Shown here piece after piece: positions 18,712 through 48,921 of a stretch of DNA of 64,000 nt (the first letter of the stretch is position 1; every line of letters starts with the position of its first letter). The translations under genes and the position numbers were made by a program. Origin of the DNA: an uncultured Verrucomicrobiota bacterium (GTDB taxonomy: Bacteria; Verrucomicrobiota; Verrucomicrobiia; CAZIPW01); NCBI GenBank assembly GCA_964541905.1, contig CAZIRU010000001.1, forward strand, positions 141,490 through 205,489, read 5' to 3'. Under the pieces are notes generated by a model. It was given only the letters and a program-made list of their open reading frames with translations. It ran no database searches and was not told the DNA's origin.

Positions 18712-18791
18712 CTTAATTCCAGTCTATTGTATTTTAACAAAATTAACACAAAAAACTTGTCGTTGGCCGCTTTATTTATGAGAATACAGAG

Positions 18792-19136
18792 GTGTATCAG
18801 GTTTTTTTTAATGAAAAAAGCGCGTTGGTTTTTAAAGGTTTCTCTCAACAACGCCAGTTGGAGATTATCAATGCACTCAATACAATTACTCCAGATTCTT
18901 TAGCGCGCCCAGAAGAACCTTTTGGGTGTTTTAAACGAGCAGATACTATCTATTATCGCTACCGTTTTGAAGATTTGCGTTTTTATTTCACACTCAAAGG
19001 GGACCTTATTCACTGCGTCTATATTCTTCAAAAAAACACCTGGGGGGATTTTTGTTTACGCAGTAATTTAGAAAAAGTTTCTGATATTGAAGTTGAGTCC
19101 AAACCTCATTTTTGGGAATTTTTAGAAAACAACTGA
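18792..19136 (+). CDS. small protein with RelE/ParE-toxin-like sequence pattern (tentative)
   Basis: 114 aa. The region YYRYRFEDLRFYFTLKGDLIHCVYILQKN matches the RelE/ParE beta-strand pattern (yRi.vgdyRiiY.i.d..i.ilri). The ORF lies in an AT-rich tract and no antitoxin partner is visible. Confidence 0.3.
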   Translation: MYQVFFNEKSALVFKGFSQQRQLEIINALNTITPDSLARPEEPFGCFKRADTIYYRYRFEDLRFYFTLKGDLIHCVYILQKNTWGDFCLRSNLEKVSDIEVESKPHFWEFLENN

Positions 19137-19603
19137 TTTTAAATTTTTTTGAGGATGTGGATGGAGCCCCACAGGGTGTATTGCAAAAAACCACGGGTTT
19201 AATCATAGAGCTCTATTAACACCTAAAAGTGTGGTTTTCTGTGGAAGTGAGAAAGGCTTATTAAAGCCTTTTTTAATATTAACTGTTTTATAAAGTTACT
19301 TGTTTATAACTTTGTAAATATATTTATATCAAATATTTAATAATGTAATAAAATAAACAACTTGCGAATATTTAGATGAATAAATTTTTTCTCCCCACTT
19401 ATCTACACTACTTCCCTTATCATGTTTTTTATTTCACCCTTTAAATATTACATACTCCCTTTATTATAAACATATTATAAACTTTTTCACAATTTCACAA
19501 CCTATAAGATGATGAAGATTATAAATATAAATACTCTTCTTATACAAACACTCTCATTTACTTTTTTATTGTCACGCCACCCGTAACGCCTTTAACTAAT
19601 CTT
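19137..19603. promoter_or_regulatory. candidate chromosomal replication origin (oriC) with AT-rich unwinding region, immediately upstream of dnaN
   Basis: About 460 bp with no ORFs and very high AT content in a GC-rich genome. DnaA-box-like 9-mers are present: TGTGGATGG at 19156 and TTATCTACA at 19389, plus TGTGGTTTT/TGTGGAAGT. There is an imperfect palindrome TTTATAAAGTTAC..GTTTATAACTTTGTAAA. Nearly all genes to the left (1768-18711) are on the minus strand. Confidence 0.5.
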
Positions 19604-20731
19604 ATGAAAATCAAAATCCATCGTGATCATTTTATCAATGGACTTAATCAGGTCTTAAATGTTGTTGGAACAAGAGCGACTATGCCTATTTTAAGTAACG
19701 TCCATATTGAAGCTCGTCCAGATGGTATTCGTTTAACAACTACAAATCTCGACTTAGGAATGCGCTGTTCGATTAAAGCTGAAGTTATAGAACCAGGAGC
19801 TATCACCCTTCCTGTTAGAAGACTTGCTAGTATTGTAAAAGAACTACCCTCTTTAGATGTGCGGCTAGAAAGTACACAAAAATATCAAACAACACTTGTT
19901 TCAGGCAGCTCACGCTTTAAAATCATGGGACTTTCTCCCGAAGAATACCCTCCTTTGCCAACATTCAACGAAGAACACTCTATTACCCTCTCTCAAAATG
20001 ATTTACAAAGACTTTTAAAACTCGTCTCCTACGCAGCCTCAACCGACGAGAGCCGCTATCAAATGAATAGTGTTTTTTTTGATTTTACCCCTGGAAAATT
20101 AACCCTTGTGGCTACGGACGGCCGCCGCCTGGCGCTTGCTTCACACGACGTAGCAGTAAGTGAAAAAAATGTTGGCAAATTAATACTCCCGCTTAAAACC
20201 GTTGCAGAGGTGGAGCGCGCCCTAGGTCAAGGCGATAACGTAAAACTCACCTTCAACAATCGCCAAATTGCCTTTTCCTTTGAAAATAAAAACTCAGAGA
20301 TGGGCTTTATCGACCAAATCCATCTCGTCTCAAAACTGATTGAAGGAAAATATCCAGACTACAACCAAGTTCTCCCCAAAGAGACCTACAATCGCATTAA
20401 ACTTGATCACAACCTCTTTACTGAGAGCGTAAAGCGTGTTTCCTTGGTCACAACTGAAAAAAACAATTCGATCAAAGTTATTATTTCTCCTAAAAATATC
20501 GAAATTAGCGGTTCATCCCCCGACTTTGGCGAGGCGCAAGAGTCTATTGGCGGTGTCGCATACGAAGGTCCGGATGTCAGTGTTGCCTTCAACCCGCAAT
20601 ATATTCTCGAACCAATGCGGGCGATTACCGAAGACGAGGTGTTTTTAGAGTTTAAGGACGAGGTGAGCCCGGGTGTTTTCAAAACACTCAATAAATTCAC
20701 CTGTGTGGTAATGCCCTTACGTCTATCATAG
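19604..20731 (+). CDS. dnaN: DNA polymerase III beta subunit (sliding clamp)
   Basis: 375 aa with the DnaN-typical N-terminus MKIKIHRDHFINGLNQVLNVVGTRATMPILSNVHIEA and a three-domain length. Confidence 0.9.
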   Translation: MKIKIHRDHFINGLNQVLNVVGTRATMPILSNVHIEARPDGIRLTTTNLDLGMRCSIKAEVIEPGAITLPVRRLASIVKELPSLDVRLESTQKYQTTLVSGSSRFKIMGLSPEEYPPLPTFNEEHSITLSQNDLQRLLKLVSYAASTDESRYQMNSVFFDFTPGKLTLVATDGRRLALASHDVAVSEKNVGKLILPLKTVAEVERALGQGDNVKLTFNNRQIAFSFENKNSEMGFIDQIHLVSKLIEGKYPDYNQVLPKETYNRIKLDHNLFTESVKRVSLVTTEKNNSIKVIISPKNIEISGSSPDFGEAQESIGGVAYEGPDVSVAFNPQYILEPMRAITEDEVFLEFKDEVSPGVFKTLNKFTCVVMPLRLS

Positions 20732-20770
20732 ATAGGTGTAAAAATTTACAGGAACCTTACAACATCGCGC

Positions 20771-21535
20771 CTAGTCGTGCTTTCGTAAAAATTTCGAAAG
20801 CGTCACTTCTCCCGATCTTAGGCTCACAACTTCTTTTCCCGTCTTTACACACAGCGCTCCATCAGCATCTATTCCCAAAACCTTTCCACGCCTAACCCCT
20901 TCTTTATTTTCAAAACAAATATTTTTTCCCGTTAATCCATCATAACACAGCCAAAGCTCAATCATCTCCTCTAAATATATTCCCGCGCAAAAGCGCTCAA
21001 AACTCTCCGCCAAAGACGAACACAAAAGGCTTCGCAATCGCTCCAAATCGAAGGTCTTATGCGCCTCGAGTCTCAGTGAAGTTGCGCGCAGTCCTGCGGG
21101 AAACTTTATCGAATTTACATTTAGACCCACGCCTAAAATCAAAACCCGTCCAACCCCACTCACAACCGGCGCTTCTGCCAAAAGCCCCGCGCATTTCTTT
21201 TGCCCCACCCACAAATCATTGGGCCACTTGAGCCACACCCGCACCCGAGTCTTTTTTGCGATCGCCTCCGCAAGCCTAAGCCCCGCATAAAGCGTGAAAG
21301 TTGGCAGTTCTTTTAGCGGTACCTCCGCCTTGAACGCGGCTGTACAATACAAATTTCCCTCGGGCGAGTGCCATTGCCGGCCCATGCGCCCCCTGCCGGC
21401 GGTTTGATTTTTTGCACTCACAAAAATCGGCGGGGTCTCCTCCGTCAAAAGCCGCAAAGCCTCATCATTGGTGCTGCCGAGCGTGTCGTACTCAAAACAA
21501 GTTACTTTGCCCGAAGGTTGTATTTTAGAAGCCAT
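20771..21535 (-). CDS. birA: biotin--[acetyl-CoA-carboxylase] ligase (group I, no DNA-binding domain)
   Basis: Signature QTAGRGRMGRQWHSPEGNLY. Start set at the ATG at 21535 (MASKIQPSGK). Confidence 0.75.
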   Translation of the reverse strand: MASKIQPSGKVTCFEYDTLGSTNDEALRLLTEETPPIFVSAKNQTAGRGRMGRQWHSPEGNLYCTAAFKAEVPLKELPTFTLYAGLRLAEAIAKKTRVRVWLKWPNDLWVGQKKCAGLLAEAPVVSGVGRVLILGVGLNVNSIKFPAGLRATSLRLEAHKTFDLERLRSLLCSSLAESFERFCAGIYLEEMIELWLCYDGLTGKNICFENKEGVRRGKVLGIDADGALCVKTGKEVVSLRSGEVTLSKFLRKHD

Positions 21536-21554
21536 TCCGCTATTATAAAAACCG

Positions 21555-22739
21555 ATGGAGAATCTTTTTGCAATGGTGATCGTGGGCGTTTTAGCGCTGA
21601 TTTTGGGTGGCGTTCTCGGCCACATATATTCTCAAAAACATGCAACACCTCCGCCCTCCGACGATCTCTTGCGCGAGCGCTTCAAGGCGGCCGCCTCCGA
21701 GGCTATGCAAGTCTCTCAAGCGGGTTTTCTAGCTCAAGCCAAGCTCGTGGTCGAGAACGCGCGCGAGGTGGCTACGAGTGAATTTCAAAAGCAGGGGCTT
21801 ACGCTGCAAAAAAATCTCGAACCGCTCCGCGCCTCTCTCGAAAAACTCGAAAGCAATATCTCCTCCTTGGAAAGGGCCCGCGTGGGCGCTTACGCCGGCC
21901 TCACCCAGCAGCTCGAAAATCTTTCTTTGGCGCAAAAAGATCTTCGCTTGGAGACTTCCGCCCTTGTTCAAGCCTTGCGCGATCCAAAGACGCGAGGCAG
22001 TTGGGGCGAGTTGCAACTCAAACGAGCAGTGGAGTTCGCCGGCATGTCGGCCTATGTGGATTTTCAAACCCAGGTGAGTGTCTCCAATTCCGACGAGCGT
22101 TCTCTGCAGCCCGACATGGTCATCCGTTTGCCGGCGGGACGCCATGTGGTGGTGGACGCCAAAACGCCCATGCGCGCGTATCTCGAGGCGCTTAACGCCA
22201 CCACTCCCGACGAAAAAAAGCGTCTCTTTTGCGATCACGCCCGCCAGTTGCGCGACCACTTCAAAAAGCTCGGCCAAAAACAATACTGGGCGCAGTTTTC
22301 CCCCTCTCCCGAGTTTGTTGTTCTCTTTTTGCCACAAGAGAGTCTGCTTTCGGCGGCGCTTGAGTTTGAGCCGCAGCTGATCGAGGACGCCGTGCGCGAG
22401 CACGTGATTATCGCCACCCCCACCACTCTTATCGCGCTTCTCAAGACGGTCGCTTATGGCTGGGGGGAGTTTCAGGCGGCCGAGCGCGCCCGTCACGTCG
22501 TCTCTTTGGGCAACGAACTTATCGACCGCTTCTCAACCGTTTTGGGCTATTGGAAGGGCGTGGGCGTCGAGCTCAAACAGGCCGTCGAAAAATACAATCA
22601 AGCGGTAGCCTCGACCGAAGCGCGCCTGATGCCGACGGCACGCGCGTTGGCGGGCGAGAAAAAGCTCGAAGAGCCGGAAGGCGTCCAAGTTTTGCCTCGC
22701 GAGATGGCTGTTGCCGAAACTCAAACGCGAGAGGATTAG
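21555..22739 (+). CDS. rmuC: DNA recombination protein RmuC
   Basis: N-terminal TM, long coiled coil, then the RmuC nuclease-like core (GSWGELQLKRAVEFAGM, VVVDAKTP). Confidence 0.8.
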   Translation: MENLFAMVIVGVLALILGGVLGHIYSQKHATPPPSDDLLRERFKAAASEAMQVSQAGFLAQAKLVVENAREVATSEFQKQGLTLQKNLEPLRASLEKLESNISSLERARVGAYAGLTQQLENLSLAQKDLRLETSALVQALRDPKTRGSWGELQLKRAVEFAGMSAYVDFQTQVSVSNSDERSLQPDMVIRLPAGRHVVVDAKTPMRAYLEALNATTPDEKKRLFCDHARQLRDHFKKLGQKQYWAQFSPSPEFVVLFLPQESLLSAALEFEPQLIEDAVREHVIIATPTTLIALLKTVAYGWGEFQAAERARHVVSLGNELIDRFSTVLGYWKGVGVELKQAVEKYNQAVASTEARLMPTARALAGEKKLEEPEGVQVLPREMAVAETQTRED

Positions 22740-23359
22740 CGCTTAAATTTACTAAACCCCAGCCCGCTTAAATCCTCTTCCGTGTAGATCGCAAAAACCT
22801 CACGCTCGCGTCCGTTCTCAAAGATTCTGTAATATCTGAAGTCCGCCCGCGAAAAGTCCTCCAAGCTCCAGCTGGAAACTTTCGCCTCATACGGATTTTC
22901 ACCAAGTGCCTCCGCTGGAGCTTTTTCGTCAAGCGCCTGCCAGATGCCCAGCAACATCCCTGTTTTCTCGCGCATCTTTTTTATCATCTGCAGCCCCTTT
23001 TGTTTTTCAAAAGAAGCCAAAAGGTCAAAACACCACACAAAGTCATAAGAATGCAGCTCGTCAATGAGCGTATAGGCGTTGCCGACGAAAATTCGTTTAT
23101 ACATCGCGCGCTGATAATCTTGCACCAGCGGCGCATAAATTTCGATTCCGTCAATCTGGCTTTTCCACTGGCGCGTGAGCGCGCGACCCTCCCAAATATC
23201 CGTGTACTCGCGGAAGAGAAAGCCCCACTTTCCGCTACCGACACCCAAATCCAAAAAGCTCTCCGGCTTGAATTTCAAAACCAGCTCACGGGTAATTTCC
23301 GTTGCCCTAAACGCTTGCGACATACCGCTATTTTGCAGCAGCTCAAACTGATAAGTCAA
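22736..23359 (-). CDS. class I SAM-dependent methyltransferase-like protein
   Basis: Motif I-like LDLGVGSGKWGF; 207 aa. Confidence 0.4.
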   Translation of the reverse strand: MTYQFELLQNSGMSQAFRATEITRELVLKFKPESFLDLGVGSGKWGFLFREYTDIWEGRALTRQWKSQIDGIEIYAPLVQDYQRAMYKRIFVGNAYTLIDELHSYDFVWCFDLLASFEKQKGLQMIKKMREKTGMLLGIWQALDEKAPAEALGENPYEAKVSSWSLEDFSRADFRYYRIFENGREREVFAIYTEEDLSGLGFSKFKR

Positions 23360-23392
23360 TTCACTCTCCGCTCTTGGGCAAAAAAGCGCGCC

Positions 23393-23851
23393 CTACATTT
23401 CCACCTTAACGACAATTTTTTTAACCTCACTAGTCGCCTCCGCGCGCATTCCCGGGGCATGGGCATCCCAAGGGAAAAAGATCGCAAAGGCGCCCGCGCG
23501 AAGCCGCAATTGCAGTCCTTGCGCTACCGCTTCTTTATAAAACGCGAGGTCTTTTTCTTCGTCAAAAACGCCCTCCGGCGTCAACCCCTCTACTTCGCGC
23601 GCGCCCAAAAGCTCCTCTCCGTGAGCCAAAAGCTGGATGTCGGCATAACGCCGATGCGACTCAAATTTCCCTTCGCTTGGGGGTTTGGGCGCATATTCCT
23701 GAACGCTTGCATAGACGCGCGTTCCGTCGATCTCTGTGCGCCCACAGGCCAGCGCCGCAAGATCGGCTTTTTTGAGCCACGCGAAAGCTGTCGCAAAGTT
23801 TGCGCTCAAGCCATTGTAGGCTGAGGTGTTTTTTAACAAGTCGAATATCAT
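23393..23851 (-). CDS. YhcH/YjgK/YiaL (DUF386) family protein
   Basis: A ~150-aa protein matching YhcH-family layout (RYADIQLLAHGEE, IFFPWDAHAPG, KIVVKV). Start moved to the ATG at 23851 (MIFDLL), giving an ATGA overlap with waaA. Confidence 0.55.
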   Translation of the reverse strand: MIFDLLKNTSAYNGLSANFATAFAWLKKADLAALACGRTEIDGTRVYASVQEYAPKPPSEGKFESHRRYADIQLLAHGEELLGAREVEGLTPEGVFDEEKDLAFYKEAVAQGLQLRLRAGAFAIFFPWDAHAPGMRAEATSEVKKIVVKVEM

Positions 23852-25134
23852 AAAGTTTTTACGCCTTCGGGCAAAAGCTCCAGCCACTCCAGCGTCCGAA
23901 GCGTAGCCCCCCGATTTTTCTCAAAGTAAGCGCGGGCCGCTTCTCCCATTGTGCGGCGATAATCTTCATGAGCGAGCAAATACGCCAGAGCCTCTTCCAG
24001 CTCCATAGCCGAACCCACAAAAGCCCCGCCTTTAGCCTCTTCTAGCTCTTGAGCGATCTGCCTAAAGTTGCTCATGCCGCGGCCCATCAAGATAGGTTTG
24101 CCAACGGCGGCGGCCTCAAGAGGGTTTTGGCCGTCTTTATGTGGCGGGAGGCTTTTTCCAATAAAAACAAGCGCACAGAGCTGCGTCAAAGCCGCCAGCT
24201 CGCCGGTCGTGTCAGCCAACACCACCTCTGGGGCTCCGTTTACCAGCCCTCGGCTGCGCATATGATAAGTGCAGCCGCAATTTTTTAAGAGAGGCTCCAC
24301 TTCGCTCCTGCGTTCGGCGTGGCGCGGCACAAGTAAGAGCCGCAGCTTCTCGTTTTGCGCCTTGAGCTTCAAAAAAGCGTCGAGTAATATTTTTTCCTCT
24401 CCCGCCCACGTCGAGGAACCTAAAAGGATAACCGCATCCTTCGGGAAACCCAGCGAGGTCCACAGTTCCGTGCGAGCTGCTTCCGGCAGAGGTTTGGGAT
24501 TGACTGCGTCAAACTTCAAACTTCCCAGCTTTGTTAAAAGCTCCGGATTGGCGCCCAAGCGCAAATAACGCTCAGCATCCTGCTGTGTTGCGGCCAAAAT
24601 ACCTGAGACCTTCGCTAAAAGTTGCCTCGTCATGCCCTTAAAGCACGAAAAGCGCCTAAAGGACCTGTCCGAAAGGCGCGCTCCGATGATATAGACGGGG
24701 ATATTCTTTTTTCGCGCCTGCCAAAGCAGCTCCGGCCAAAGCTCCCCTTCCACAAAGATAATCCGGTCTGGATTGAGCCGTGATAGCGCTTTGGGCGAGA
24801 AGTTGTCGATGGGAAATGTAAAAAGGTAAGTGTAAAAATCCTTAAGTTTGTTCTCAGCAATAGCGCGCGCGGTGGTGGTTGTTACTGAAAGGCACACTTC
24901 CACCGCCGGATTATTCTTAAGCTCCCGCAAAAGAGGCCCAATCGAATTAAGCTCGCCAACCGAGACGGCGTGGAGCCAAAGGCGCTCTACGCCGGCTTTG
25001 CGCGCTGGAGGGCGGATAAAGCCGAAACGTTCCCGAAGATGCCATTTGCCGCCGCGTCTCCAAAGTCGCAACATGTAGTTGGGCAAGAGGATAAGGAAAA
25101 GCGGCCAAAACAAAAGACGATACAGCCAGATCAT
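23848..25134 (-). CDS. waaA: 3-deoxy-D-manno-octulosonic acid (Kdo) transferase (GT30)
   Basis: N-terminal TM, the hallmark HAVSVGE motif, and a C-terminal GT-B domain; 428 aa. Confidence 0.8.
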   Translation of the reverse strand: MIWLYRLLFWPLFLILLPNYMLRLWRRGGKWHLRERFGFIRPPARKAGVERLWLHAVSVGELNSIGPLLRELKNNPAVEVCLSVTTTTARAIAENKLKDFYTYLFTFPIDNFSPKALSRLNPDRIIFVEGELWPELLWQARKKNIPVYIIGARLSDRSFRRFSCFKGMTRQLLAKVSGILAATQQDAERYLRLGANPELLTKLGSLKFDAVNPKPLPEAARTELWTSLGFPKDAVILLGSSTWAGEEKILLDAFLKLKAQNEKLRLLLVPRHAERRSEVEPLLKNCGCTYHMRSRGLVNGAPEVVLADTTGELAALTQLCALVFIGKSLPPHKDGQNPLEAAAVGKPILMGRGMSNFRQIAQELEEAKGGAFVGSAMELEEALAYLLAHEDYRRTMGEAARAYFEKNRGATLRTLEWLELLPEGVKTL

Positions 25135-25976
25135 AAGCTCTCCAGTTTATCCCTTTTAGAGGGGTTTGACAATGCCGGTCGCCGTGAAATTTTTTGCGGT
25201 TTTTGCGCAAAAGAATCTGTTTTTTTGCGCTTTTTCCGCAAAAAAGGTTTGTAAAAAACCTTCTCCAAGTAAAGGCCGCAAGCGGGGGCTGTTACAATTT
25301 CGTGTGTCCTTTTTTTACTTTTAAAGATTTGTTTAAGGCGCATAAGCGGGAGTTTCCCGCGCGCAACCTCAATGGCCGTGCCGACAATGCTGCGCGCCAT
25401 TTTGTAAAGGAACCCACTGCCTATCAAAACGATAGTGATGTTTTTTTGACGAATGGAGGCGCTGCATTTAAAAAGCGTTTTTTGCTGGGTCTCCTCTTTG
25501 AGGACATTTCCCGCCAAGGCCGAAAAATCGTGCCGGCCCTCGAAGCTTTTTAAAGAATCTTTAAGTAGTTTAATATCAATCGGATGCCTTATGCTCCAAA
25601 AATAGCGGTTTTCAAAAGGGGTGGCGGGAGCGCATTTTATTTTGTATATATAGCGCTTGGCCTGCGCGCAAAAACGGGCGTGAAAATCTTTCGAAGCTTT
25701 TGATAGAGAACAAATTAAAATTGTTTTTGGCAGGTGGGTTTGCAGCGCGTTTTGAAGTTTTTTGCAAGAATATTTCCATTGCGCGTCAAAATGTCCCACT
25801 TGCCCCTGTGCGTGGACACCGCTATCCGTCCGGCTGGCTCCATGTAGGCGAATGGGCTCTTTAAAAACTTTCCTAAGTGATTCCTCTATAGCATCTTGCA
25901 CAGCTTTACCATTAGGCTGGCTCTGCCAGCCTTGAAAATCCGTGCCATCATAGGCGATGATCATTTTAAAGCGCAT
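25131..25976 (-). CDS. truA: tRNA pseudouridine(38-40) synthase
   Basis: Motifs IIAYDGTDFQGWQSQ and the catalytic RTDSGVHA. Start moved to the ATG at 25976 (MRFKM). Confidence 0.85.
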   Translation of the reverse strand: MRFKMIIAYDGTDFQGWQSQPNGKAVQDAIEESLRKVFKEPIRLHGASRTDSGVHAQGQVGHFDAQWKYSCKKLQNALQTHLPKTILICSLSKASKDFHARFCAQAKRYIYKIKCAPATPFENRYFWSIRHPIDIKLLKDSLKSFEGRHDFSALAGNVLKEETQQKTLFKCSASIRQKNITIVLIGSGFLYKMARSIVGTAIEVARGKLPLMRLKQIFKSKKRTHEIVTAPACGLYLEKVFYKPFLRKKRKKTDSFAQKPQKISRRPALSNPSKRDKLESL

Positions 25977-31071: not shown

Positions 31072-31153
31072 GCCCAGGTGGCGGAATTGGCAGACGCGTC
31101 GGACTCAAAATCCGATTCCGTGAGGAGTGTGGGTTCGACCCCCACCCTGGGTA
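31072..31153 (+). tRNA. tRNA-Leu (anticodon CAA)
   Basis: Fold: GCCCAGG-TG-GCGG AATTGGCAGA CGC..-GTCGGACTCAAAATCCGAT-long variable arm (TCCGTGAGGAGTGT)-GGGTT CGACCCC CAC-CCTGGGT-A. The long variable arm and CAA anticodon indicate Leu. Confidence 0.8.
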
Positions 31154-31189
31154 GCTTGATTTTTGTCAAAAATAGGTTAAAATTAAGCT

Positions 31190-32086
31190 GTGGCGATAAC
31201 AATAATACAGCCGGAAGAAGTTAGGACTTATTTGGACTCCGAAGGAGCGGCGTTCAAAGAAAAGCCGAAGCTGCATACGCTTTTGGGTAAGTTGACTCAG
31301 GCAATGGAAGTCTGTGCCAGATATGCCGGGTCTCCCCTCAAGGACGCGAAGACGCTCCACTTGCCTGCCTATCATCATGATACCGAGGAGGAGCGCTGGG
31401 ATTGTCATCAGTTGATGGCGGACAACGGACATTATCATCCGCTTATGATGGGCGTGAGCCCTTATTTGCCGATGGCAAGCAAGGAAGAGATAAACAAGGT
31501 TGTTCAGCGTGCGCGACGCGATGGGACGGAAAAGAATTTTTTAATTTTTTATTATTTCACCACTTATGGAATGATTTACCTCCGAGAAGAGGTCGCGTTA
31601 TTCAATGAGATGGGGGACTGGTACAATGACATCAAGAGATCGGGCCAGATTAAGGAGCTTGATCGAACTGAGGGTATTATTAAGCTGCATGTGGACACTC
31701 TTTACATCAACAGGCAGCCTTTTATTGCGGGAGGGGAACCTAGCGAAGCCGATTTCCACTTTTTTGACAACGGAGCTTCGCGGAATACCAAAGATTTGGA
31801 TAGCTTGGCGCAATGGCTGACTACGTTTCCGGAAAAAGTAACAATGGATCTTGTAATTGAAGAAATTCCGTCTCTTCTTTGGGGTTTCCTTAACAGGCCC
31901 AAGGAACGCACTTCGGCCTGTTTGCGGGTCATCAAAGGATATGAAGCCACTGGGCTTCTTAAGCATGTGCCGTCGGAAATTATGAAGCAAATAGCCGAGC
32001 AGGAAATCGCTATGATGCGGGAGGGTAAACTACCCCTGCGGATGTGGCCCGATCGCGACAAATGCGGAGGGTTAGATATTGAATAA
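31190..32086 (+). CDS. hypothetical protein (ORFan; no recognised domain)
   Basis: 298-aa ORF starting 37 nt after tRNA-Leu. It contains a His-rich patch (YHHDTEEERWDCHQLMADNGHYHP) and appears lower in GC than its neighbours. Confidence 0.5.
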   Translation: MAITIIQPEEVRTYLDSEGAAFKEKPKLHTLLGKLTQAMEVCARYAGSPLKDAKTLHLPAYHHDTEEERWDCHQLMADNGHYHPLMMGVSPYLPMASKEEINKVVQRARRDGTEKNFLIFYYFTTYGMIYLREEVALFNEMGDWYNDIKRSGQIKELDRTEGIIKLHVDTLYINRQPFIAGGEPSEADFHFFDNGASRNTKDLDSLAQWLTTFPEKVTMDLVIEEIPSLLWGFLNRPKERTSACLRVIKGYEATGLLKHVPSEIMKQIAEQEIAMMREGKLPLRMWPDRDKCGGLDIE

Positions 32087-32107
32087 CTTGTGCTATAATA
32101 GGAGAAT

Positions 32108-33073
32108 ATGGAAGAAGAATTTAAGAGCTACCCCGATTACATAAAAGAATGGCCCGATAAGTTTATTGATGCACAAGCTATAGAAAACGATGCGGCCGAG
32201 TTGAAATATATAACTAAATCTCAAGATAAGATAACTCTTGAAAACTCTCGTTTAGTTTTTGAGGCCATTCATAAAAACGGCTTAGAGCCTCTTGGAGAAT
32301 TATGCGGAGGCCTTAATCCAGAGGCGTTCCGACGGATTTATCTTGGAAGTGATTGTCGAGATTATGTAAAACCGCATATTGATGGGCAGAATATCCGGAG
32401 CAAGGATTTGGACTTTCGTTCCGGTGCAAGATTCTTGAGGGCGCTGGCGTTGTTTTTGCCACAGTTCGAGATCAAGAAGGGAGAGGAAGACGAGGAAAAG
32501 CGCGTGAGATTCATTATGAGAGAACCTCGGGTTTGGGGAGATGAACCTGTGAAGATTGTGCTTCCCGAAATAGACAAATTGATGGTGCAGACGGATGTTT
32601 CAATACCCGTGGAATCTTTCCCGACCATTCCTTATGTGGATGAGCAAGGCGGTGTCCCCTACGAAGTCCTGCAAGGGGTGTGCACAACGGAACAACCCTA
32701 CGGGAAAGAGGGGCCGCAGGTTCGCTTGATAGATCCGATGTCCATAATACTTGCGAAAATGGGTGCCATTCAGGGAGGTGTTCCCTATCAGAAGAAGCAC
32801 AAGTATCGCTGGCACATGAGAATTTGCGCGCTTTGCGTCCCGTATTACCTAGAGGAGAAAACCGCGCAATTTAAAGAAGGTAAGATTGATCGAGACCCTG
32901 CAGTAACAGCGCGGCGACTTTTGGTGGATTTGGACAGGTCAGATTATGAGTATTACTTGATTTTCGACAACAATCGCAAAGCGCTCGATGCCCTCAAGAA
33001 AGCACTCGCGCCGTATGCGCGGGGTGTGCAAAAGGAAATTTATGGGGCCGACGATATAAGGCCAATTCGCTAA
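32108..33073 (+). CDS. hypothetical protein (ORFan; no recognised domain)
   Basis: 321-aa ORF 21 nt downstream of the previous one, with a possible SD-like GGAGAA upstream. A Cys/His cluster (HKYRWHMRICALCVPYY) is present. It ends 2 nt before the convergent GH57 gene. Confidence 0.5.
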   Translation: MEEEFKSYPDYIKEWPDKFIDAQAIENDAAELKYITKSQDKITLENSRLVFEAIHKNGLEPLGELCGGLNPEAFRRIYLGSDCRDYVKPHIDGQNIRSKDLDFRSGARFLRALALFLPQFEIKKGEEDEEKRVRFIMREPRVWGDEPVKIVLPEIDKLMVQTDVSIPVESFPTIPYVDEQGGVPYEVLQGVCTTEQPYGKEGPQVRLIDPMSIILAKMGAIQGGVPYQKKHKYRWHMRICALCVPYYLEEKTAQFKEGKIDRDPAVTARRLLVDLDRSDYEYYLIFDNNRKALDALKKALAPYARGVQKEIYGADDIRPIR

Positions 33074-33075
33074 GC

Positions 33076-34353
33076 CTATTTTGCAACGCGGCGGCAAAAT
33101 TCCTTGCCCCATTCGGGCCAGATGCCCTCCCCCCAGTAGCGGAAGCAGGAGGTCTGGGCGCACAGCAGATTGAAAAGATCGGCGTTCTCGAGCGGGTTGG
33201 AAGGCAGCGCTTCGCCATATTTCTTGTGGAAGGCCACCGAGGCGTTCTCCATGTCGCCCAGCAAACCTTCGTAGCCCTTGACCCAGCTAATATTATTGGT
33301 CCAAGTTCCGCCGTCCATGTGGAAACGATAGTCTGCACGTTTGCACGCCTCGATAGCGGCGGATGCATCGCCCTTGTATTCGCGGAAGAAGGCGGCTTGA
33401 TGGATCGGCTGGCAGGCGGGCAGCATTTCAGCCTGCACACCCATCTCGCGAAGTGTGCCCAGATACTCCGTGCCGTTCATGAAGCGCGTGGGGCCGTCAT
33501 TGTGGCCGAGGGTACGCACAACCTCCATGTATTTGGAGGGGAACTCATTCATCATGACGCCGCCGTTTTCGCCGTCGGCGATTTGCGCTGAAATGGGAGG
33601 GACCCGCAGCGTGCCGAGTTTGGCTGGCGAGAGCGACAGCGCCTCGAAATAGGGCTGCATCTGCGCCACAAGCTTGGTATCGGAGCCCTGCGTTTTGATG
33701 ATCGCCATGATGGCGGCCGTCTCGCCCTTGGTATTGCGGCAAACAAGCCGATGTGGAAGATAGCGCTCGCGCAAAGAGCTGCCGTCCTCAAGTTCGACGG
33801 TGTGCTCTTGAACAATAACCCATACAAAGCCTTCTTCGCGGAGGGTTTTGACAAATTCATAGGCGATATCGGGATGGTTGGGCAGCGCCATTTCGGAAGG
33901 CGAAAAACCTTTGACGCGGGAGAGCGCCTCATCACCGAAGAGATGGCGAAAGTTTTCTTTCCACGCGCGCACGTGTAAGCGATAGTCTGCCGGAGGAGTA
34001 GAAGGGGCGACGGCATGGCCCCAGGCGGTGCCAAGCCACTCGACTTCGAGGGGGTAGTGATGGGCGAGCGTGCGGAGCTTTTCGAGAGATTCGGCGCACT
34101 TCATTTGCTCGAGCCCCCAAAAGAGATTGCCGGAAAAATCGAGCATTACGCGCGGGGAAGCGCCCTGGCCGACAAGTTGGGGAACAAAATCGCCCATACG
34201 CTCGTAACAACGCAAAAAAACGGGCGCATTGTGATTGTCGCCGATCGAGAAATTGTTCCACATGTGCTGGAGGTTGGAGATCGGTGCGCCATCGGGGCCA
34301 GCCGGAATGATCGGCTGGTGCATGTGTAGAGAAATGGCGAAAGCGGAGTTCAT
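33076..34353 (-). CDS. glycoside hydrolase family 57-like protein (alpha-glucan-active)
   Basis: The N-terminal LHMHQP motif is typical of GH57 enzymes. 425 aa. Confidence 0.5.
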   Translation of the reverse strand: MNSAFAISLHMHQPIIPAGPDGAPISNLQHMWNNFSIGDNHNAPVFLRCYERMGDFVPQLVGQGASPRVMLDFSGNLFWGLEQMKCAESLEKLRTLAHHYPLEVEWLGTAWGHAVAPSTPPADYRLHVRAWKENFRHLFGDEALSRVKGFSPSEMALPNHPDIAYEFVKTLREEGFVWVIVQEHTVELEDGSSLRERYLPHRLVCRNTKGETAAIMAIIKTQGSDTKLVAQMQPYFEALSLSPAKLGTLRVPPISAQIADGENGGVMMNEFPSKYMEVVRTLGHNDGPTRFMNGTEYLGTLREMGVQAEMLPACQPIHQAAFFREYKGDASAAIEACKRADYRFHMDGGTWTNNISWVKGYEGLLGDMENASVAFHKKYGEALPSNPLENADLFNLLCAQTSCFRYWGEGIWPEWGKEFCRRVAK

Positions 34354-34373
34354 AGCGTGTTATTCGGACTTTT

Positions 34374-35033
34374 TCAGGTTAAGCTGAAGGAAAATGCAGA
34401 GGCCAAGAGCTTTTTTACGGGCCAGCGCAGCTCAAAAATGGCCCGAAGCGGCTCAACGGAAGGGCCGGCCAGAAGCAGATGCAGGCGATAGATGCCAGAG
34501 GCGGAGAGCTCTTTTTTAAAAAGAGAAGGGAAGGTGAGCGTCATAGGAGCCCATGTTTTGGCGCCGAGAGTAAAACGAAGAAGGTCGGCGTAGTGCTCCA
34601 TCCCTCCAAAAAACTCAATCGTGGCTCCATGAGAGAAAGCCCAGTTAAGAGGAAGCGAGTCGTCGCAAAGAAGCGTGCGAGTGCCTTTGACGTCTTGGCG
34701 CTCAAGACGCGTCAGGAAGAGCCGCGCGGGGCCCGCGTTGGCGTTGGTCGGATTACTGACATGCGCACGGAGATAGACTTCTCTGGATTTCCCGGAGGTG
34801 AAGATGCAGCCGCACGTGGTTGTGTCGGTGGGAACAAACGCAAATTTGAGTTGGGCGCCCATGCGAGCGTTATAACAGACGCCTTGCGGCAATGACAAGG
34901 GATAAAAAAGCTCCGCCAAAAGACGGAGCTTTTTAAAAGATAGATGGGAGTTATTTTTCGCCCTCGACTTCGATTCCCATGTTTTTTGCCGTTCCGACGA
35001 TGATGCGATAGGCTGCTTCATCGTTTTTGGCAT
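34374..35033 (-). CDS. hypothetical protein
   Basis: 219-aa ORF whose 5' end overlaps rplK. The true start is probably an internal ATG (MGAQLKF, near 34865). No known domain. Confidence 0.3.
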
Positions 35034-35382
35034 TGAGGTCGGCTTTCTTAATTTTGACGATCTCTTGAATTTGCTTTTTGGTGACCTTGCCCACTTTTTC
35101 CTTGTTGGGTATTTTGCTGCCCTTCTCGACTCCGGCTGCTTTTTTGAGCAGAACGGAAGCCGGAGGGCTCTTGAGGATAAAGGTAAAGGATTTGTCGGCG
35201 TAGACGGAAATTACAACCGGCAAAATCATGCCATTTTGATCTTTGGTCTTCGCATTGAATTCTTTGCAGAAGGCCATAATATTGACGCCTTTGGCACCCA
35301 AAGCGGGGCCGACGGGAGGCGCGGGATTGGCAGCGCCTGCGGGCAGCTGCAAACGAATTTCTCCAACAACTTTTTTAGCCAT
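34951..35382 (-). CDS. rplK: 50S ribosomal protein L11
   Basis: Clear L11 sequence ([35 protein letters not shown]). Start moved to the ATG at 35382 (MAKKVVGEI). It is not flanked by nusG or rplA. Confidence 0.85.
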
Positions 35383-35624
35383 AGTATTTATGTGTTTCTC
35401 GCCCGCCAAAGTTGAGGCAATCCAATGCGGACAAGGGCTCTAGACTAGCACAGCCGGGCTCGCAGAGGCAAGCAAATAAGTTAGAGCGTGTTTAGAATCT
35501 ATTTGGCAGTATTGTTGGGATGATTTTGGCGTTTTGGCAAGGCAAGCCCCGATGAAATCGGGGTTCTTCGAGCGAGCAACACGGGCTAGAAGCCCGAAAT
35601 GCGAACGAGAAACGCCGCCAAAAC

Positions 35625-35660
35625 ACAAAAGCGCCCAACCCGAAGGGCGCCGCTCATTAT
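35625..35660 (-). terminator. intrinsic terminator
   Basis: On the minus strand: GCGCCC-TTCGGGTT-GGGCGC followed by TTTTGTGTTTTG, downstream of the 35776-36078 gene. Confidence 0.45.
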
Positions 35661-35775
35661 TGTTTATCAGCAAATTATGCGGCGCAATATGGCGAAGAGA
35701 TTCTGAACACGCTCTTAGATGGGCAGCAGAACCTCACCGGCAATTTGCCGTTCGGGTTGAATGAGGGTTGCGGGC

Positions 35776-36078
35776 TTAGATCAATTTGACGGCGGCGCGT
35801 TTGACCCACTTGAACATCATAAGACCCACGGCCTCCAAAACAAGAATTGCCGCAAGTCCCATAAAGGCCCAAGTTTCGTTAATCATGTCACGAGGATTGG
35901 CCACCAGTGGCGAGAGATTGAAGCTCATGCGGATGTAAGAAGTGTAGGCGTCGAATGCGTTCATCAAGCAGGCAAAGGCGAAAATAAAGAATGCCAAACG
36001 ATAGAGGGTTGCTCCATTGAGGTTTATGGAAGTCTCAGACATGAACGTTAAATACAAAACAAAAGGGACAAAGTCCAC
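35776..36078 (-). CDS. small membrane protein, hypothetical
   Basis: 100 aa with three predicted TM helices. Its start is 15 nt below the end of the hybrid kinase gene. Confidence 0.4.
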   Translation of the reverse strand: MDFVPFVLYLTFMSETSINLNGATLYRLAFFIFAFACLMNAFDAYTSYIRMSFNLSPLVANPRDMINETWAFMGLAAILVLEAVGLMMFKWVKRAAVKLI

Positions 36079-36092
36079 TTCTTTTTTGGTGA

Positions 36093-37673
36093 CTATTTTA
36101 CGCCGCCTTGAGCTTCGGAGATAGCTTTGCGAACAGCGTCAATGAGGGTTTGTGCGGGGCAAGGCTTGCTGAGAATATCGCCGATGCCACACGCTTTGGC
36201 CTCTTCGGCCTTAATGCGCTCGTTATAACCAGAGATGAGAATCGCAGGGGTAGAGATGTGCTTTTCGCGGATTTTTTTAACCATCTCAATGCCATTGAAC
36301 TCGGGCATGGTAAGGTCAGTGATGATCAGGTCGAAAGCGTTCGGGTCTTTTTCGAGTAGGGAAAGAGCCTGGCGAGGATGGTTGACGGCCTGCACCTGAT
36401 AACCCATTTCGCCGAGCAGCTCGCTACCCACCGACGTGATTAGGGGCTCGTCATCGACGAGCAGGATACGTTCACCGCCAGACCGTGCTGGGGAAACGGA
36501 AGACAATTCGTCTTTTGTAAGTTGTTTTTCCACGATAGGAAGAAAAATTTCGAAAGTTGAGCCAACGTTCTCTTTGCTATCAAAACGGACATACCCCTCA
36601 TGACGCAAGACGATACCATGAACAATCGCCAGTCCCATCCCAGAGGTCTGAATACCTTCGGCCGTAGAAGCGAAGGGTTCAAAAATGCGCGGTTTAAGGG
36701 CCTCTTGAATGCCGCGACCGTTATCCCGGATGGAGATTTTGATGCAGTGCACGGCGCGCCCGTGGCCCTGGGCGACTGCCGAAGGAAACTCTTGCCAGGT
36801 TTCTTCGACAAAAACCCCCATCTTCGGATTTTCCCGACCGTCAAGCGATTGAAGAGCATTTGTAAAAAGATTCAACAGCATCTGATTGATTTCGTCGCTA
36901 ACAATCATCACGACAGGAAGCTGCTCGGGGATATGGGTGTCAATCTGAACGGCGCGCGGCGTGGCAGACCGGATGAACTCAACCGCGTGGCGGACAATGG
37001 GGCAAATATCGATGTGCTTTTTCTGGCCTTCTCCGCGTTTGCTGAAAGTGGACATTTGCGAGACGAATTCTTTGGCCTGAGTCGTGGCTTTAAGAATTTT
37101 TTGAACGCGATCCGCGACCTTGGGATTGTCAGAGCCAATCATGCCTAAAATTTCGGCATGTCCCATAATGGCCGCCAGCATGTTATTGAAGCGATGCGCG
37201 ATGCCGCCAATCAGCGTGCCAATAGACTCCAGCCGATGCATGGCTTGCAGGTGGCGCGCGATGGTTTGCTCCCGGGTGCGGTCAATGCCCACGCCGACGT
37301 AGGCGACTAATTTTCTTTTGGCGTCAAAAACCGCGCTTACGGAAGTCTGAAGGTCTAGAATAGCTCCCGTTTTTGTCTTAACTTGCAAAACTCCGTGCCA
37401 GCGTTCCCCAGCCTTTACGAGGTTAAGGCTATGCTCCACCCACTCGGAGCCATCCATGAGCTGAATGAAGTCCAGGGTTTTTCCAAAGACTTCCGTTTCG
37501 GAAAAACTGGTTTTTTCGCAAAAAGCGGCGTTGACACTTTGGACGTGCCCAGAGGGGTCCACAACAACGACAAGCTCGTGGGTCAAATTGACAACCTTCT
37601 CGAGAGTAACAGCCCGCAAGTCTTCATTGCGCTGCGCGCCGAAGAGGTTGGGAAACGGAGGGTGGGTGTTCAT
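36093..37673 (-). CDS. hybrid sensor histidine kinase / response regulator (PAS-HisKA-HATPase-REC)
   Basis: N-terminal PAS-like region, H-box HRFNNMLAAIMGHAEIL, ATPase G-box region (IRDNGRGI, TSGMGLAIV), and a C-terminal receiver (ILLVDDEP...DLIITDLTMPEFNG...K). Confidence 0.85.
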   Translation of the reverse strand: MNTHPPFPNLFGAQRNEDLRAVTLEKVVNLTHELVVVVDPSGHVQSVNAAFCEKTSFSETEVFGKTLDFIQLMDGSEWVEHSLNLVKAGERWHGVLQVKTKTGAILDLQTSVSAVFDAKRKLVAYVGVGIDRTREQTIARHLQAMHRLESIGTLIGGIAHRFNNMLAAIMGHAEILGMIGSDNPKVADRVQKILKATTQAKEFVSQMSTFSKRGEGQKKHIDICPIVRHAVEFIRSATPRAVQIDTHIPEQLPVVMIVSDEINQMLLNLFTNALQSLDGRENPKMGVFVEETWQEFPSAVAQGHGRAVHCIKISIRDNGRGIQEALKPRIFEPFASTAEGIQTSGMGLAIVHGIVLRHEGYVRFDSKENVGSTFEIFLPIVEKQLTKDELSSVSPARSGGERILLVDDEPLITSVGSELLGEMGYQVQAVNHPRQALSLLEKDPNAFDLIITDLTMPEFNGIEMVKKIREKHISTPAILISGYNERIKAEEAKACGIGDILSKPCPAQTLIDAVRKAISEAQGGVK

Positions 37674-37779
37674 GAGCGGCTTACTTCAGATTGACAGGGC
37701 TGGGCATACTTTTCAAGCATGAAAGACCTGCGATATCCCCACGGCGCCTGCGTTCAGCTTTAATTAGACACAACCAGTG

Positions 37780-39258
37780 TTATTTCGCTTGGATGAGGTT
37801 GTAGACGTTAATGTAGTGCTGGACGAAGTTGCTCCAGGAGAAATTATACTTCATACCTTGTAGCGCCAGTTGTTTGTAATATTCCGGCGCGTCCAAATAA
37901 AGCCCTTTGGCGCGGACAAGCGCGCTTTCGATGGCCCAGTAGTCTTCTTGGTGGAAGACAAACCCATTGCGCTCTTCGCGGGGATGTGCGGTGTCGTTGT
38001 CCCAATCGAAGACAGTATCGGCAAGCCCGCCCGTGTAGCGAACAATCGGCGGAGTGCCATAGCGCAGCGAGATCATCTGGACGAGCCCGCAAGGTTCGAA
38101 AAGAGAGGGAACCACCAGATAGTCGGCGCCAGCATAAAGCAGGCGACCAAGTTCATTGCTAAAGCCAATGTGTAAATGGCAGTCGCGATTGCCGCTGAGA
38201 TGATTTTTAAGGTGCTTGAAGTGTCCATCGATCGTGGAATCGGAGGGCGGCCCAACCAGCACAAATTGGCAGCCGTTTTGGATGCTCCAGAAAAGCGCGT
38301 GGCGGATCAGATGCAAGCCCTTTTGATCGTCGAGCCTCCCGACATAGGCAAAGATGGGCTTGCGCAAATCGCGATTGAGATTGAAGCGCTCTTGCAGGGC
38401 CTCTTTGTTCTTGAGCTTGCGCTCATAAGTCTCGGCGGTGTAACCAAAGGGGATATGAATGTCGTTTTCGGGATTCCAACGTTCCTGGTCGAGACCGTTA
38501 AGGATGCCGCCGAACTTATCCTGATGTTTATCGAGGGTATTGCCCAGGCCGTAGTTCAAGGGTGTGTGGCGTACCTCCCAGGCGTGATGGGGAGAGACGG
38601 TATTGACGTAGTTTGAAAAAACAATACCACCCTTCATGTAATTGATGCAGCCTTTGTTGAAGTCGTCCTGGAGGCGGTCTTTGGAATAGAAAAAGTCCGG
38701 ACGGCCCAGCCCTGTGGCGTTGAGCACGGCGGCGGGAGCCTGTCCTTGGTGTTTGAAATTGTGGATGGTATAGCAAACCCGTTGCTTATCCAAGCCCGCG
38801 TTTTTATAGAGCTCGAAAAGCATCACCGGTAAAAGGCCCGTCTGCCAGTCGTGGCAATGAATGACATCCGGACGGCGATTGGTCTTGAGCATGAACTCGA
38901 GCGCGGCCTTGGAGAAAAACGCCCAACGCATGTAGTCGTCATTTTGGCCGTAGTAGGCAAAACGATTGAAGAAGAGGTCGTTACTGTGAGCGTCGATAAA
39001 GAGACATTTGACGTGATGTACTAGCCCCGAGAGCACCGTACAGTGAATTGAGCCGCCGTACCAAGGAACCCACAGATCGTTATAGACGGGAGTAAGCGCG
39101 TGGATCTGGTCATAGCGCATACAGTCGTATTTGGGCAGAATAACCTCGACTGCGTGGCCGTTGCGTTCCAGCTCCCGTGAGAGCCCGTAAACAACATCGC
39201 CCAAACCGCCGACCTTCGCGACAGGATCCATTTCAGTGGCTACTTGAACGATATACAT
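37780..39258 (-). CDS. glgA: glycogen synthase (GT5)
   Basis: N-terminal KVGGLGDVV motif and GT5 length (492 aa). Confidence 0.85.
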   Translation of the reverse strand: MYIVQVATEMDPVAKVGGLGDVVYGLSRELERNGHAVEVILPKYDCMRYDQIHALTPVYNDLWVPWYGGSIHCTVLSGLVHHVKCLFIDAHSNDLFFNRFAYYGQNDDYMRWAFFSKAALEFMLKTNRRPDVIHCHDWQTGLLPVMLFELYKNAGLDKQRVCYTIHNFKHQGQAPAAVLNATGLGRPDFFYSKDRLQDDFNKGCINYMKGGIVFSNYVNTVSPHHAWEVRHTPLNYGLGNTLDKHQDKFGGILNGLDQERWNPENDIHIPFGYTAETYERKLKNKEALQERFNLNRDLRKPIFAYVGRLDDQKGLHLIRHALFWSIQNGCQFVLVGPPSDSTIDGHFKHLKNHLSGNRDCHLHIGFSNELGRLLYAGADYLVVPSLFEPCGLVQMISLRYGTPPIVRYTGGLADTVFDWDNDTAHPREERNGFVFHQEDYWAIESALVRAKGLYLDAPEYYKQLALQGMKYNFSWSNFVQHYINVYNLIQAK

Positions 39259-48288: not shown

Positions 48289-48921
48289 TCATTTCCATTG
48301 GAGCCTCAAGCGATGGTTTTCGATAAACAGATCGGATATTTCTTGCCACGAATGAAGAAGTTCTTCACTCGAAGGGTCTCCAAATATTTTCCAAAAAACA
48401 GCCATTATAGCAGGTTGAACAATGGCGTGCGGGAGGGGAAGGCTTCCCAGATAGGATTTTTGCGCGCTGAAATAAAATCCTTGAGGCCCGAGTTTAAAGG
48501 CGCCGCTTGTTTGAAAAACAAACGCTTGTTTATTGAGCGACGCGGGATAGCCCATCACCCCAATCTGGAAAAGCCCCGGCAAAATACGGACATTGGAGGT
48601 AAAAAGCGGCGCTTGACCTTCTTTTGTTTTTAAGCCCTCCCTCAAAAAAGTGTTAAATTCGCCCTCGGAGAGGGTGAGGGTGGAGGAGCGTCGTTCTGCC
48701 ATTGCGGCGATTTTTTCTCTCCACGCGCTGCCACCACTTTCGGTGCCGGCCTGATAGAATCTTTTTAGGGCTTCCGGCTTGGAGGGGAGCGTTTCGACCA
48801 CTTCGACGGGCCTCAGGATTAACTCGGCCGCGCCCAGACAAAGGCCCAGTCCTAAAGAGATCGTGGAGGCGAAAAAAAGCCCCCAACGAGAGCCTACCGG
48901 ACTGCTGCGCTGTGCTTGCAT
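48289..48921 (-). CDS. hypothetical protein with N-terminal signal/TM anchor
   Basis: 210 aa with an N-terminal hydrophobic segment; no recognised domain. Confidence 0.35.
   Translation of the reverse strand: MQAQRSSPVGSRWGLFFASTISLGLGLCLGAAELILRPVEVVETLPSKPEALKRFYQAGTESGGSAWREKIAAMAERRSSTLTLSEGEFNTFLREGLKTKEGQAPLFTSNVRILPGLFQIGVMGYPASLNKQAFVFQTSGAFKLGPQGFYFSAQKSYLGSLPLPHAIVQPAIMAVFWKIFGDPSSEELLHSWQEISDLFIENHRLRLQWK

Follow-up and report, generated by a model that had tools for sequence, protein, structure and literature searches.

A candidate nucleotidyltransferase-type enzyme-plus-partner gene pair beside tRNA-Leu in an uncultured Verrucomicrobiota bacterium

Bicistronic modules of the AbiE and MenAT type encode a partner protein of ~200–300 amino acids (aa) in the first gene and an enzyme of ~300 aa in the second. 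AbiE is a type IV toxin–antitoxin and abortive-infection system, and the related MenAT systems occur in Mycobacterium tuberculosis. In the enzymes, the DUF1814 (Pfam PF08843) toxins AbiEii and MenT, the motifs hGG and DhD lie close to the N-terminus and the C-terminal region is helical. The Pol-beta catalytic motif has been defined as hG[G/S]x9-13DhD; both GTP binding and toxicity of AbiEii depend on its residues, and DUF1814 proteins have a spacer from motif I to motif II that exceeds the Pol-beta consensus (x = 15; PMC3985639). The conserved arginine of AbiEii motif II, R63, stands four residues before the first Asp. Here we describe a pair of genes, designated A and B, located directly downstream of tRNA-Leu in a 64,000-nucleotide (nt) stretch, hereafter the window, of contig CAZIRU010000001.1 from an uncultured Verrucomicrobiota bacterium (assembly GCA_964541905.1), and compare it with these and other described systems.

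Gene A (31190..32086, + strand; GTG start) and gene B (32108..33073, + strand; ATG start), both taken from the open reading frame (ORF) list, encode proteins of 298 and 321 aa and are separated by a gap of 21 nt. A 36-nt spacer lies between gene A and the tRNA-Leu gene with anticodon CAA (31072..31153, + strand; ARAGORN; Rfam RF00005, 56.6 bits). The stop codon of gene B ends at 33073, 2 nt short of the stop codon of a GH57 glycoside hydrolase gene, which begins at 33076 (33076..34353, − strand; Pfam PF03065, E = 3e-10); this gene forms the convergent right-hand boundary of the module and lies outside it. A and B are the only ORFs between tRNA-Leu and the GH57 gene. The same anatomy had been proposed in an earlier, sequence-only reading of this DNA, and all its coordinates are confirmed. 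By analogy with the systems introduced above, we tentatively propose, with a probability of roughly 0.38, that A and B may form an enzyme-plus-partner module similar in action to the AbiE/MenAT nucleotidyltransferase toxin–antitoxin pairs, not a member of these families.

The protein encoded by gene B contains both motifs of a nucleotidyltransferase signature. Motif I, hG[GS], corresponds to residues 65–68 (L-C-G-G; 32300..32311, + strand) and motif II, DhD, with its putative metal-binding aspartates, to residues 98–102 (S-K-D-L-D; 32399..32413, + strand). Several database entries of the B family are under-called at the N-terminus. For instance, the reading frame of P0007 (188 aa as called) is open to the contig edge at locus L087 (1–751) and includes the GG and SKDLD motifs, and at locus L085 the similarity to B extends upstream of the called start. 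The family alignment (A4) was rebuilt with N-terminally extended sequences, the N-terminus being available in four members. Motif I is found in all four (LCGG, LCGG, LVGG and IIGG), and the four intact members likewise share motif II in the form S-[KH]-D-x-D (SKDLD, SHDGD, SKDID and SKDLD); the L085 copy, truncated by an IS630 element, reads SKDGN at this position. The N-terminal half of the family is otherwise weakly conserved, its conserved positions being those of hGG and S-[KH]-D-x-D.

About 20 residues beyond SKDLD, B has a further acidic residue (F-E-I at 120–122). The Pol-beta signature, comprising hG[GS], [DE]h[DE]h and, on a following strand, a third carboxylate, is thus present at the motif level, with an unusually long spacer. 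The predicted secondary structure of residues 44–137 (helix, GG, helix, DLD, helix, strand, strand) is compatible with a nucleotidyltransferase core. On the strength of these motifs we lean slightly towards a nucleotidyltransferase fold for the N-terminal domain of B.

The best-conserved region of the family spans B residues 146–317 (32543..33058, + strand), as judged from the matched stretches of the homologues and from invariant alignment columns. All seven members have in common a strand motif of the form h-[ED]-h (B residue E169), a QG dipeptide (189–190), the motif LLDPxSxxLx[KR] (LLDPxSxxLxK in B, with D209 and K217) and the motif G-[KR]-x-x-R-[ND]-P-x-x-x-A-x-R-L. The last of these reads G-K-x-x-R-N-P-A-x-x-A-x-R-L in B (G258, R262, P264, A268, R270 and L271) and gives the C-terminal domain a signature of its own, different from AbiEii. 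In the AlphaFold model, residues 200–310 are helical, with predicted local distance difference test (pLDDT) values of 56–87; according to this model, the C-terminal half of B is a conserved helical domain.

With B as the query, a full, filter-only HMMER scan covering 1.84 billion representative proteins returned six homologues (P0003–P0008; E = 4e-44 to 4e-4, 30–51% identity; alignments A1 and A4). Since homologues reach E = 4e-44, gene B is, judged by sequence similarity, certainly a real gene and the founding member of a seven-member family. A word-indexed search of 5.8 billion proteins recovered B itself only, a profile search added P0008 alone, and B had no match in Pfam, NCBIfam, PADLOC, PHROGs or PDB sequences. 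The sequence-only reading had called both proteins ORFans. Neither A nor B matches a known family, which bears this out in part; however, with six distant relatives B is not strictly an orphan.

An anaerobic digester run in the laboratory on municipal waste is the source of three of the six relatives (P0003, P0004 and P0007; PMC10793357), and systems of the A–B type have so far been seen in a few uncultured anaerobic-digester-type bacteria only. The genes flanking the B homologue differ at every locus: a U32 peptidase and an ABC-F ATPase at L083, xseB and an M48 peptidase at L084, an HTH_25 protein at L087, and KdpA with tRNA-Gly at L085. The last locus (L085, 2480–4490) contains, in this order, tRNA-Gly(TCC), a frameshifted IS630-family transposase whose helix-turn-helix (HTH) and DDE_3 parts occupy different frames, and the N-terminally truncated B-family gene. 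This gene lies 1.3 kb from tRNA-Gly, with the IS630 fragments in between, and has D-G-N instead of D-x-D; from its sequence we take it to be a decayed copy on an anaerobic-digester metagenome contig. A patchy distribution, varied contexts and a copy truncated by IS630 appear typical of accessory modules, and patchiness is also a feature of AbiE and MenAT.

Gene A has no recognisable domain: its protein had no match in Pfam, NCBIfam, PADLOC, PHROGs or PDB sequences, and retrieved only itself in the word-indexed search of 5.8 billion proteins. At locus L083, a 219-aa ORF ends 50 nt upstream of the B homologue P0006 on the same strand and aligns with A residues 1–118, starting from residue 1 (Met1) of both proteins (MAITIIQPEEVRTYL in the N-terminal part of A against MAFITITPQHIKDFL in the L083 ORF). 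The pairwise E-value is 5e-4; the score lies 5.9 standard deviations (sd) above that of shuffled sequences and was equalled by one shuffle in 2000. The L083 protein likewise had no match in Pfam, NCBIfam or PDB, and a Pfam scan at E ≤ 10 gave nothing relevant for A homologues. The public annotation of gene A (P0001) begins at TTG 31232 and gives a protein of 284 aa, 14 N-terminal residues shorter, and the 14 omitted residues are conserved in the L083 homologue. Because the alignment begins at residue 1 of both, the GTG start at 31190 is favoured over TTG 31232. This similarity supports the view that A is a real gene and that the A–B order is conserved; it also supports treating A and B as a unit, that is, a two-gene module.

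We hypothesize the following mechanism. B would be a two-domain enzyme composed of a divergent nucleotidyltransferase of the Pol-beta superfamily and a C-terminal helical bundle. It would bind a nucleoside triphosphate together with Mg2+ via D100 and D102 and transfer a nucleotide to a macromolecular target. A, whose gene comes just upstream, as is the case for the antitoxins AbiEi and MenA, would act as the dedicated partner that restrains or regulates B, and a palindrome in front of A could serve as an autoregulatory operator at which A possibly acts. Such a scheme matches AbiE and MenAT in the bicistronic layout, with the partner gene first and a ~300-aa enzyme gene second, and in the arrangement of B, with hGG and DhD near the N-terminus ahead of a helical C-terminal region. 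As in DUF1814, the spacer between motifs I and II of the B family is also longer than the Pol-beta consensus, and the palindrome lies at a promoter-like site, as do AbiEi operators.

The palindrome is a perfect 7-1-7 repeat (ATTTTTG-T-CAAAAAT, 31159–31173) and overlaps promoter-like hexamers (TTGATT, 16 nt, TAAAAT; 31156..31183, + strand) that a promoter scan picked up with 9/12 matches and that may drive gene A. Promoter-like sites of this kind are no more numerous in the region than expected by chance. Palindromes of this quality occur 25 times in the 64 kb vs 16 in shuffled sequence, corresponding to ~1% chance within the 36-nt spacer. No terminator-like site was found between 31153 and 31190, which makes read-through from the tRNA promoter plausible, and tRNA-Leu and gene A are probably co-transcribed.

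The sequence-only reading had further suggested a defence or toxin-immunity function. The nucleotidyltransferase-type signature in B makes a toxin/antitoxin- or defence-like role a reasonable lead, so the suggestion survives in that form; however, no defence-system hidden Markov model (HMM) of PADLOC-DB v2 matched A or B at E ≤ 1.

Several observations weigh against the proposed enzyme-plus-partner module. Motifs I and II of the B family are separated by 18, 28, 29 and 37 residues vs 9–15 in the definition, and the AlphaFold model of B, with an overall pLDDT of 50, falls below 50 across the putative catalytic domain. At E ≤ 10, Pfam yielded no nucleotidyltransferase match for any of the seven B members or for four isolated N-terminal domains; PADLOC and NCBIfam gave none for B, and a sequence-profile search of PDB with the B family found no match. 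Foldseek with the B model was uninformative (best match E = 1.4). A motif regular expression combined with an unfiltered HMM search of 5,615 ORFs from the retrieved loci provided no nucleotidyltransferase for comparison.

The differences from AbiE in particular add to these points. DUF1814 motif III (KLxAaxxR) was found by regular expression in 0/7 members, the nearest equivalent being the conserved Lys/Arg in LLDPxSxxLxK, and motif IV (+DxxD) in none of the seven. With both motifs absent and the HMMs without a match, B is not a DUF1814/AbiEii member; at best, it would represent a new, divergent nucleotidyltransferase family. Compared with the DUF1814 spacer of 15, that of the B family is 18–37 residues long, and the motif II arginine is present in some members only: B and the L085 copy have it at position −3 and the L087 member at −4, and P0005 and P0006 lack it. 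No HTH, winged-helix or AbiEi-like domain was found in A, nor any match that would make it an antitoxin of the AbiEi (COG5340, winged helix) or MenA type, and no HMM of PF08843 or of an AbiEi family matches A or B. The conservation of the pair is thin, as it consists of a remote match at one locus, L083. At another locus, L082, a co-directional ORF abuts the B homologue; its similarity to A is not significant. Finally, the surroundings of the B homologues are mostly housekeeping genes, not defence islands.

Another group of systems with a comparable architecture includes MntA-HepT, a type VII toxin–antitoxin system, and kanamycin-nucleotidyltransferase-like enzymes, in which a nucleotidyltransferase with a Pol-beta-type G[GS]...DxD signature is combined with a helical-bundle domain, fused to it or encoded by a neighbouring gene. 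The antitoxin role in MNT-HEPN pairs falls to the nucleotidyltransferase, which measures about 100–150 aa, compared with 321 aa for B. The C-terminal domain of B differs in that it lacks the Rx4-6H HEPN motif, as read by eye from the alignment, and neither NCBIfam nor PADLOC models match A or B.

A more far-reaching proposal, which we regard as unlikely, is that A and B constitute an unrecognised nucleotidyltransferase two-component system, with B as a new branch of the Pol-beta fold that has its own G-K-x-x-R-N-P-A-x-x-A-x-R-L C-terminal domain and A as a partner of a new type without a known fold, which might act in a toxin–antitoxin or abortive infection setting, possibly by nucleotidylating tRNA or another component of translation. 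If B were an active nucleotidyltransferase under the control of A, it would add a new and very rare branch beside the AbiEii and MenT toxin families. With its new C-terminal domain and a partner of unknown fold, such a branch could inform on target choice and neutralisation of such enzymes.

It is quite possible, at well under even odds, that A and B are ordinary lineage-specific genes, native to a deeply branching and almost unsampled bacterium, with an unrelated role (structural, regulatory or metabolic-accessory), and that GG...DxD is not a catalytic nucleotidyltransferase site. The L11, sigma factor and GH57 proteins of this genome each form a singleton cluster at 90% identity among ~15 billion proteins, and the best GH57 relative among 185,579 species genomes has 58% identity. 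Near-identical contigs are limited to L001 and L089, from sister sequencing runs apparently of the same organism, and L089 ends before the locus. The source genome as a whole is unsampled, which explains much of the orphan status of A and B, and the missing close relatives are therefore uninformative. Neither gene stands out from the window in composition or codon usage, the neighbourhood contains another unannotatable ORF, the contexts of the homologues are of the housekeeping kind, and the searches gave no nucleotidyltransferase match by HMM or fold. However, undersampling fails to explain why B has six relatives at any distance in 1.84 billion proteins vs at least 258 for the neighbouring GH57, the neighbours having hundreds at 55–60% identity. 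In addition, the conserved N-terminal positions of the B family are exactly the canonical hGG and DxD residues, the context differs at every locus and one copy is disrupted by an insertion sequence (IS). Should the genes prove lineage-specific, they would be a reminder that, where a lineage is unsampled, neither orphan status nor a place beside a tRNA is by itself a sign of horizontal transfer.

Such transfer had been the central claim of the sequence-only reading, which saw in the pair a compositionally atypical candidate for a horizontally acquired islet. In this scenario, which we consider rather improbable and which concerns the origin of the pair, not its function, the 1.9-kb segment would be what is left of an islet that inserted at the 3′ end of tRNA-Leu and has since lost its integrase and att repeats, with a defence or toxin-immunity cargo. 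The pair resembles tRNA-linked islets in lying immediately 3′ of a tRNA, in filling the space up to the next gene with a small cargo of unknown function and in its locally lower guanine-plus-cytosine (GC) content; the L085 relative, 1.3 kb from tRNA-Gly with IS630 fragments, and the patchy distribution of the family also fit. The lower GC had been reported correctly with respect to the two flanking genes (0.479 in A and 0.466 in B vs 0.567 and 0.576, a difference of ~10 points), but it remains within the spread of the window. With the 49 genes of the window as the reference (gene-level mean 0.523, sd 0.042), GC z-scores are −1.04 for A and −1.36 for B, those at codon position 3 (GC3) are −0.47 and −1.18, and Karlin codon-bias z-scores are average (+0.64 and −0.03). 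This comparison of GC and codon usage places both genes within the normal range, contrary to the claim of atypical composition. Much of the dip results from a low GC at codon position 2 (0.36 in A, 0.35 in B), which reflects amino-acid content, and from unusually GC-rich neighbours; dnaN (19604–20731) itself has 42% GC.

The pair also differs from tRNA-linked islets in the traces expected of an integration event. No integrase or recombinase ORF is present in or beside the A–B segment, and the last 21 nt of tRNA-Leu have no second copy in the window at ≤3 mismatches; the ORF list and the repeat search thus agree with the earlier statement that integrase and tRNA-end repeat are lacking. The sole flanking repeat (16/19 nt; 31155–31173 and 32956–32974) has one copy inside gene B and corresponds, by our estimate, to chance expectation in 4.6 kb. 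A tblastn search of 72,556 plasmids and 50,697 phages detected no relative of A or B, nor did metagenome contigs and IMG/VR viral contigs contain relatives when searched with the B alignment or with A. The 80 GH57 loci of other genomes have ≤58% identity, belong to many phyla, share no synteny and contain no A or B relative (0/80); no close relative of this genome occurs in the public data searched, and hence no comparable tRNA-Leu/GH57 junction from which an insertion could be read as an empty site. With normal composition, no recombinase, no tRNA-end repeat and no relatives on mobile elements, horizontal acquisition of A–B is not supported, and no recent import can be demonstrated.

The sequence-only reading had also pointed to His/Cys clusters as a hint of metal binding, and A and B might accordingly have been metal-binding proteins, e.g., zinc-dependent enzymes or metallochaperones, which we find very improbable. 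The runs do exist in both proteins (A, YHHD..CHQLMADNGHYHP; B, HKYRWHMRICALCVPYY), but homologues do not conserve them, and metal binding through them was rejected as a candidate function for this reason. In the L083 homologue of A, most of the positions carry non-liganding residues and H63 gives way to Cys (H62Y, H63C, H73E, H81Q and H83R), and C72 stands opposite Ile. Every other member of the B family has Leu or Ala in place of C240, and C243 occurs in 3/7; at H229, in the HKY run, the others have Glu or a different residue, and only H236 is kept, in 5/7.

The idea that A, B or both are no genes but frames left open by chance in a long intergenic region, as the missing family matches and the single remote homologue of A might suggest, is scarcely credible, and effectively refuted for B by sequence homologues reaching E = 4e-44: A has a positional homologue with a co-linear N-terminus, both are the longest frames in the region, show GC1 > GC3 ≥ GC2 across codon positions like their neighbours and an average codon bias, and are called as genes in two independent assemblies.

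Upstream of gene B, a perfect extended −10 element, TGCTATAAT (32091–32099, + strand), is followed by a Shine-Dalgarno sequence AGGAG (32100–32104, + strand) before the ATG; together they are a possible internal promoter and/or ribosome-binding site. Perfect extended −10 elements of this kind occur in the window only here and at 48404–48412, and TGNTATAAT was observed 2 times vs 0.65 expected. Between the first TGCTATAAT and the ATG of gene B lie 8 nt, so its use would yield a leaderless transcript or one with a very short leader. A weak terminator-like hairpin for the GH57 transcript (33007–33021, − strand) lies antisense within the 3′ end of gene B. With the stop codons of B and GH57 2 nt apart, no room is left for terminators and the two transcripts must overlap.

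The neighbouring genes encode a sigma-70 factor, PAP2, CNNM, LGT, GH57 and L11 proteins. A third ORF without annotation (34374–35033, − strand) is located between GH57 and the L11 gene and has no Pfam match; its publicly called extent is 34374–34862 (162 aa), and up to 219 aa are possible. With this third unannotatable ORF beside GH57, orphan genes are not confined to the A–B pair. The gene immediately preceding GH57 is glgA in most other genomes; here the two are 3.4 kb apart (33076–39258), with the L11 gene, a 526-aa gene and small ORFs in between, so the neighbourhood is rearranged.

Elsewhere in the window, the cumulative GC skew has a minimum at ~24–25 kb, the skew being negative over 1–25 kb and positive over 25–48 kb, with genes mostly on the − strand on both sides. 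The dnaN gene (42% GC) and a 33%-GC stretch at 19–20 kb lie beside the minimum. DnaA-box-like 9-mers number 16 vs 7.4 expected in the window and are not clustered at the skew minimum. Judged from these sequence features, the window probably spans the chromosomal replication origin (18700–25500). Directly left of the AT-rich dnaN region, according to the annotation of the identical contig L089, lie two large genes with UvrD-helicase/PDDEXK and PDDEXK domains (13803–18711, − strand), which form an AddAB-like helicase–nuclease pair.

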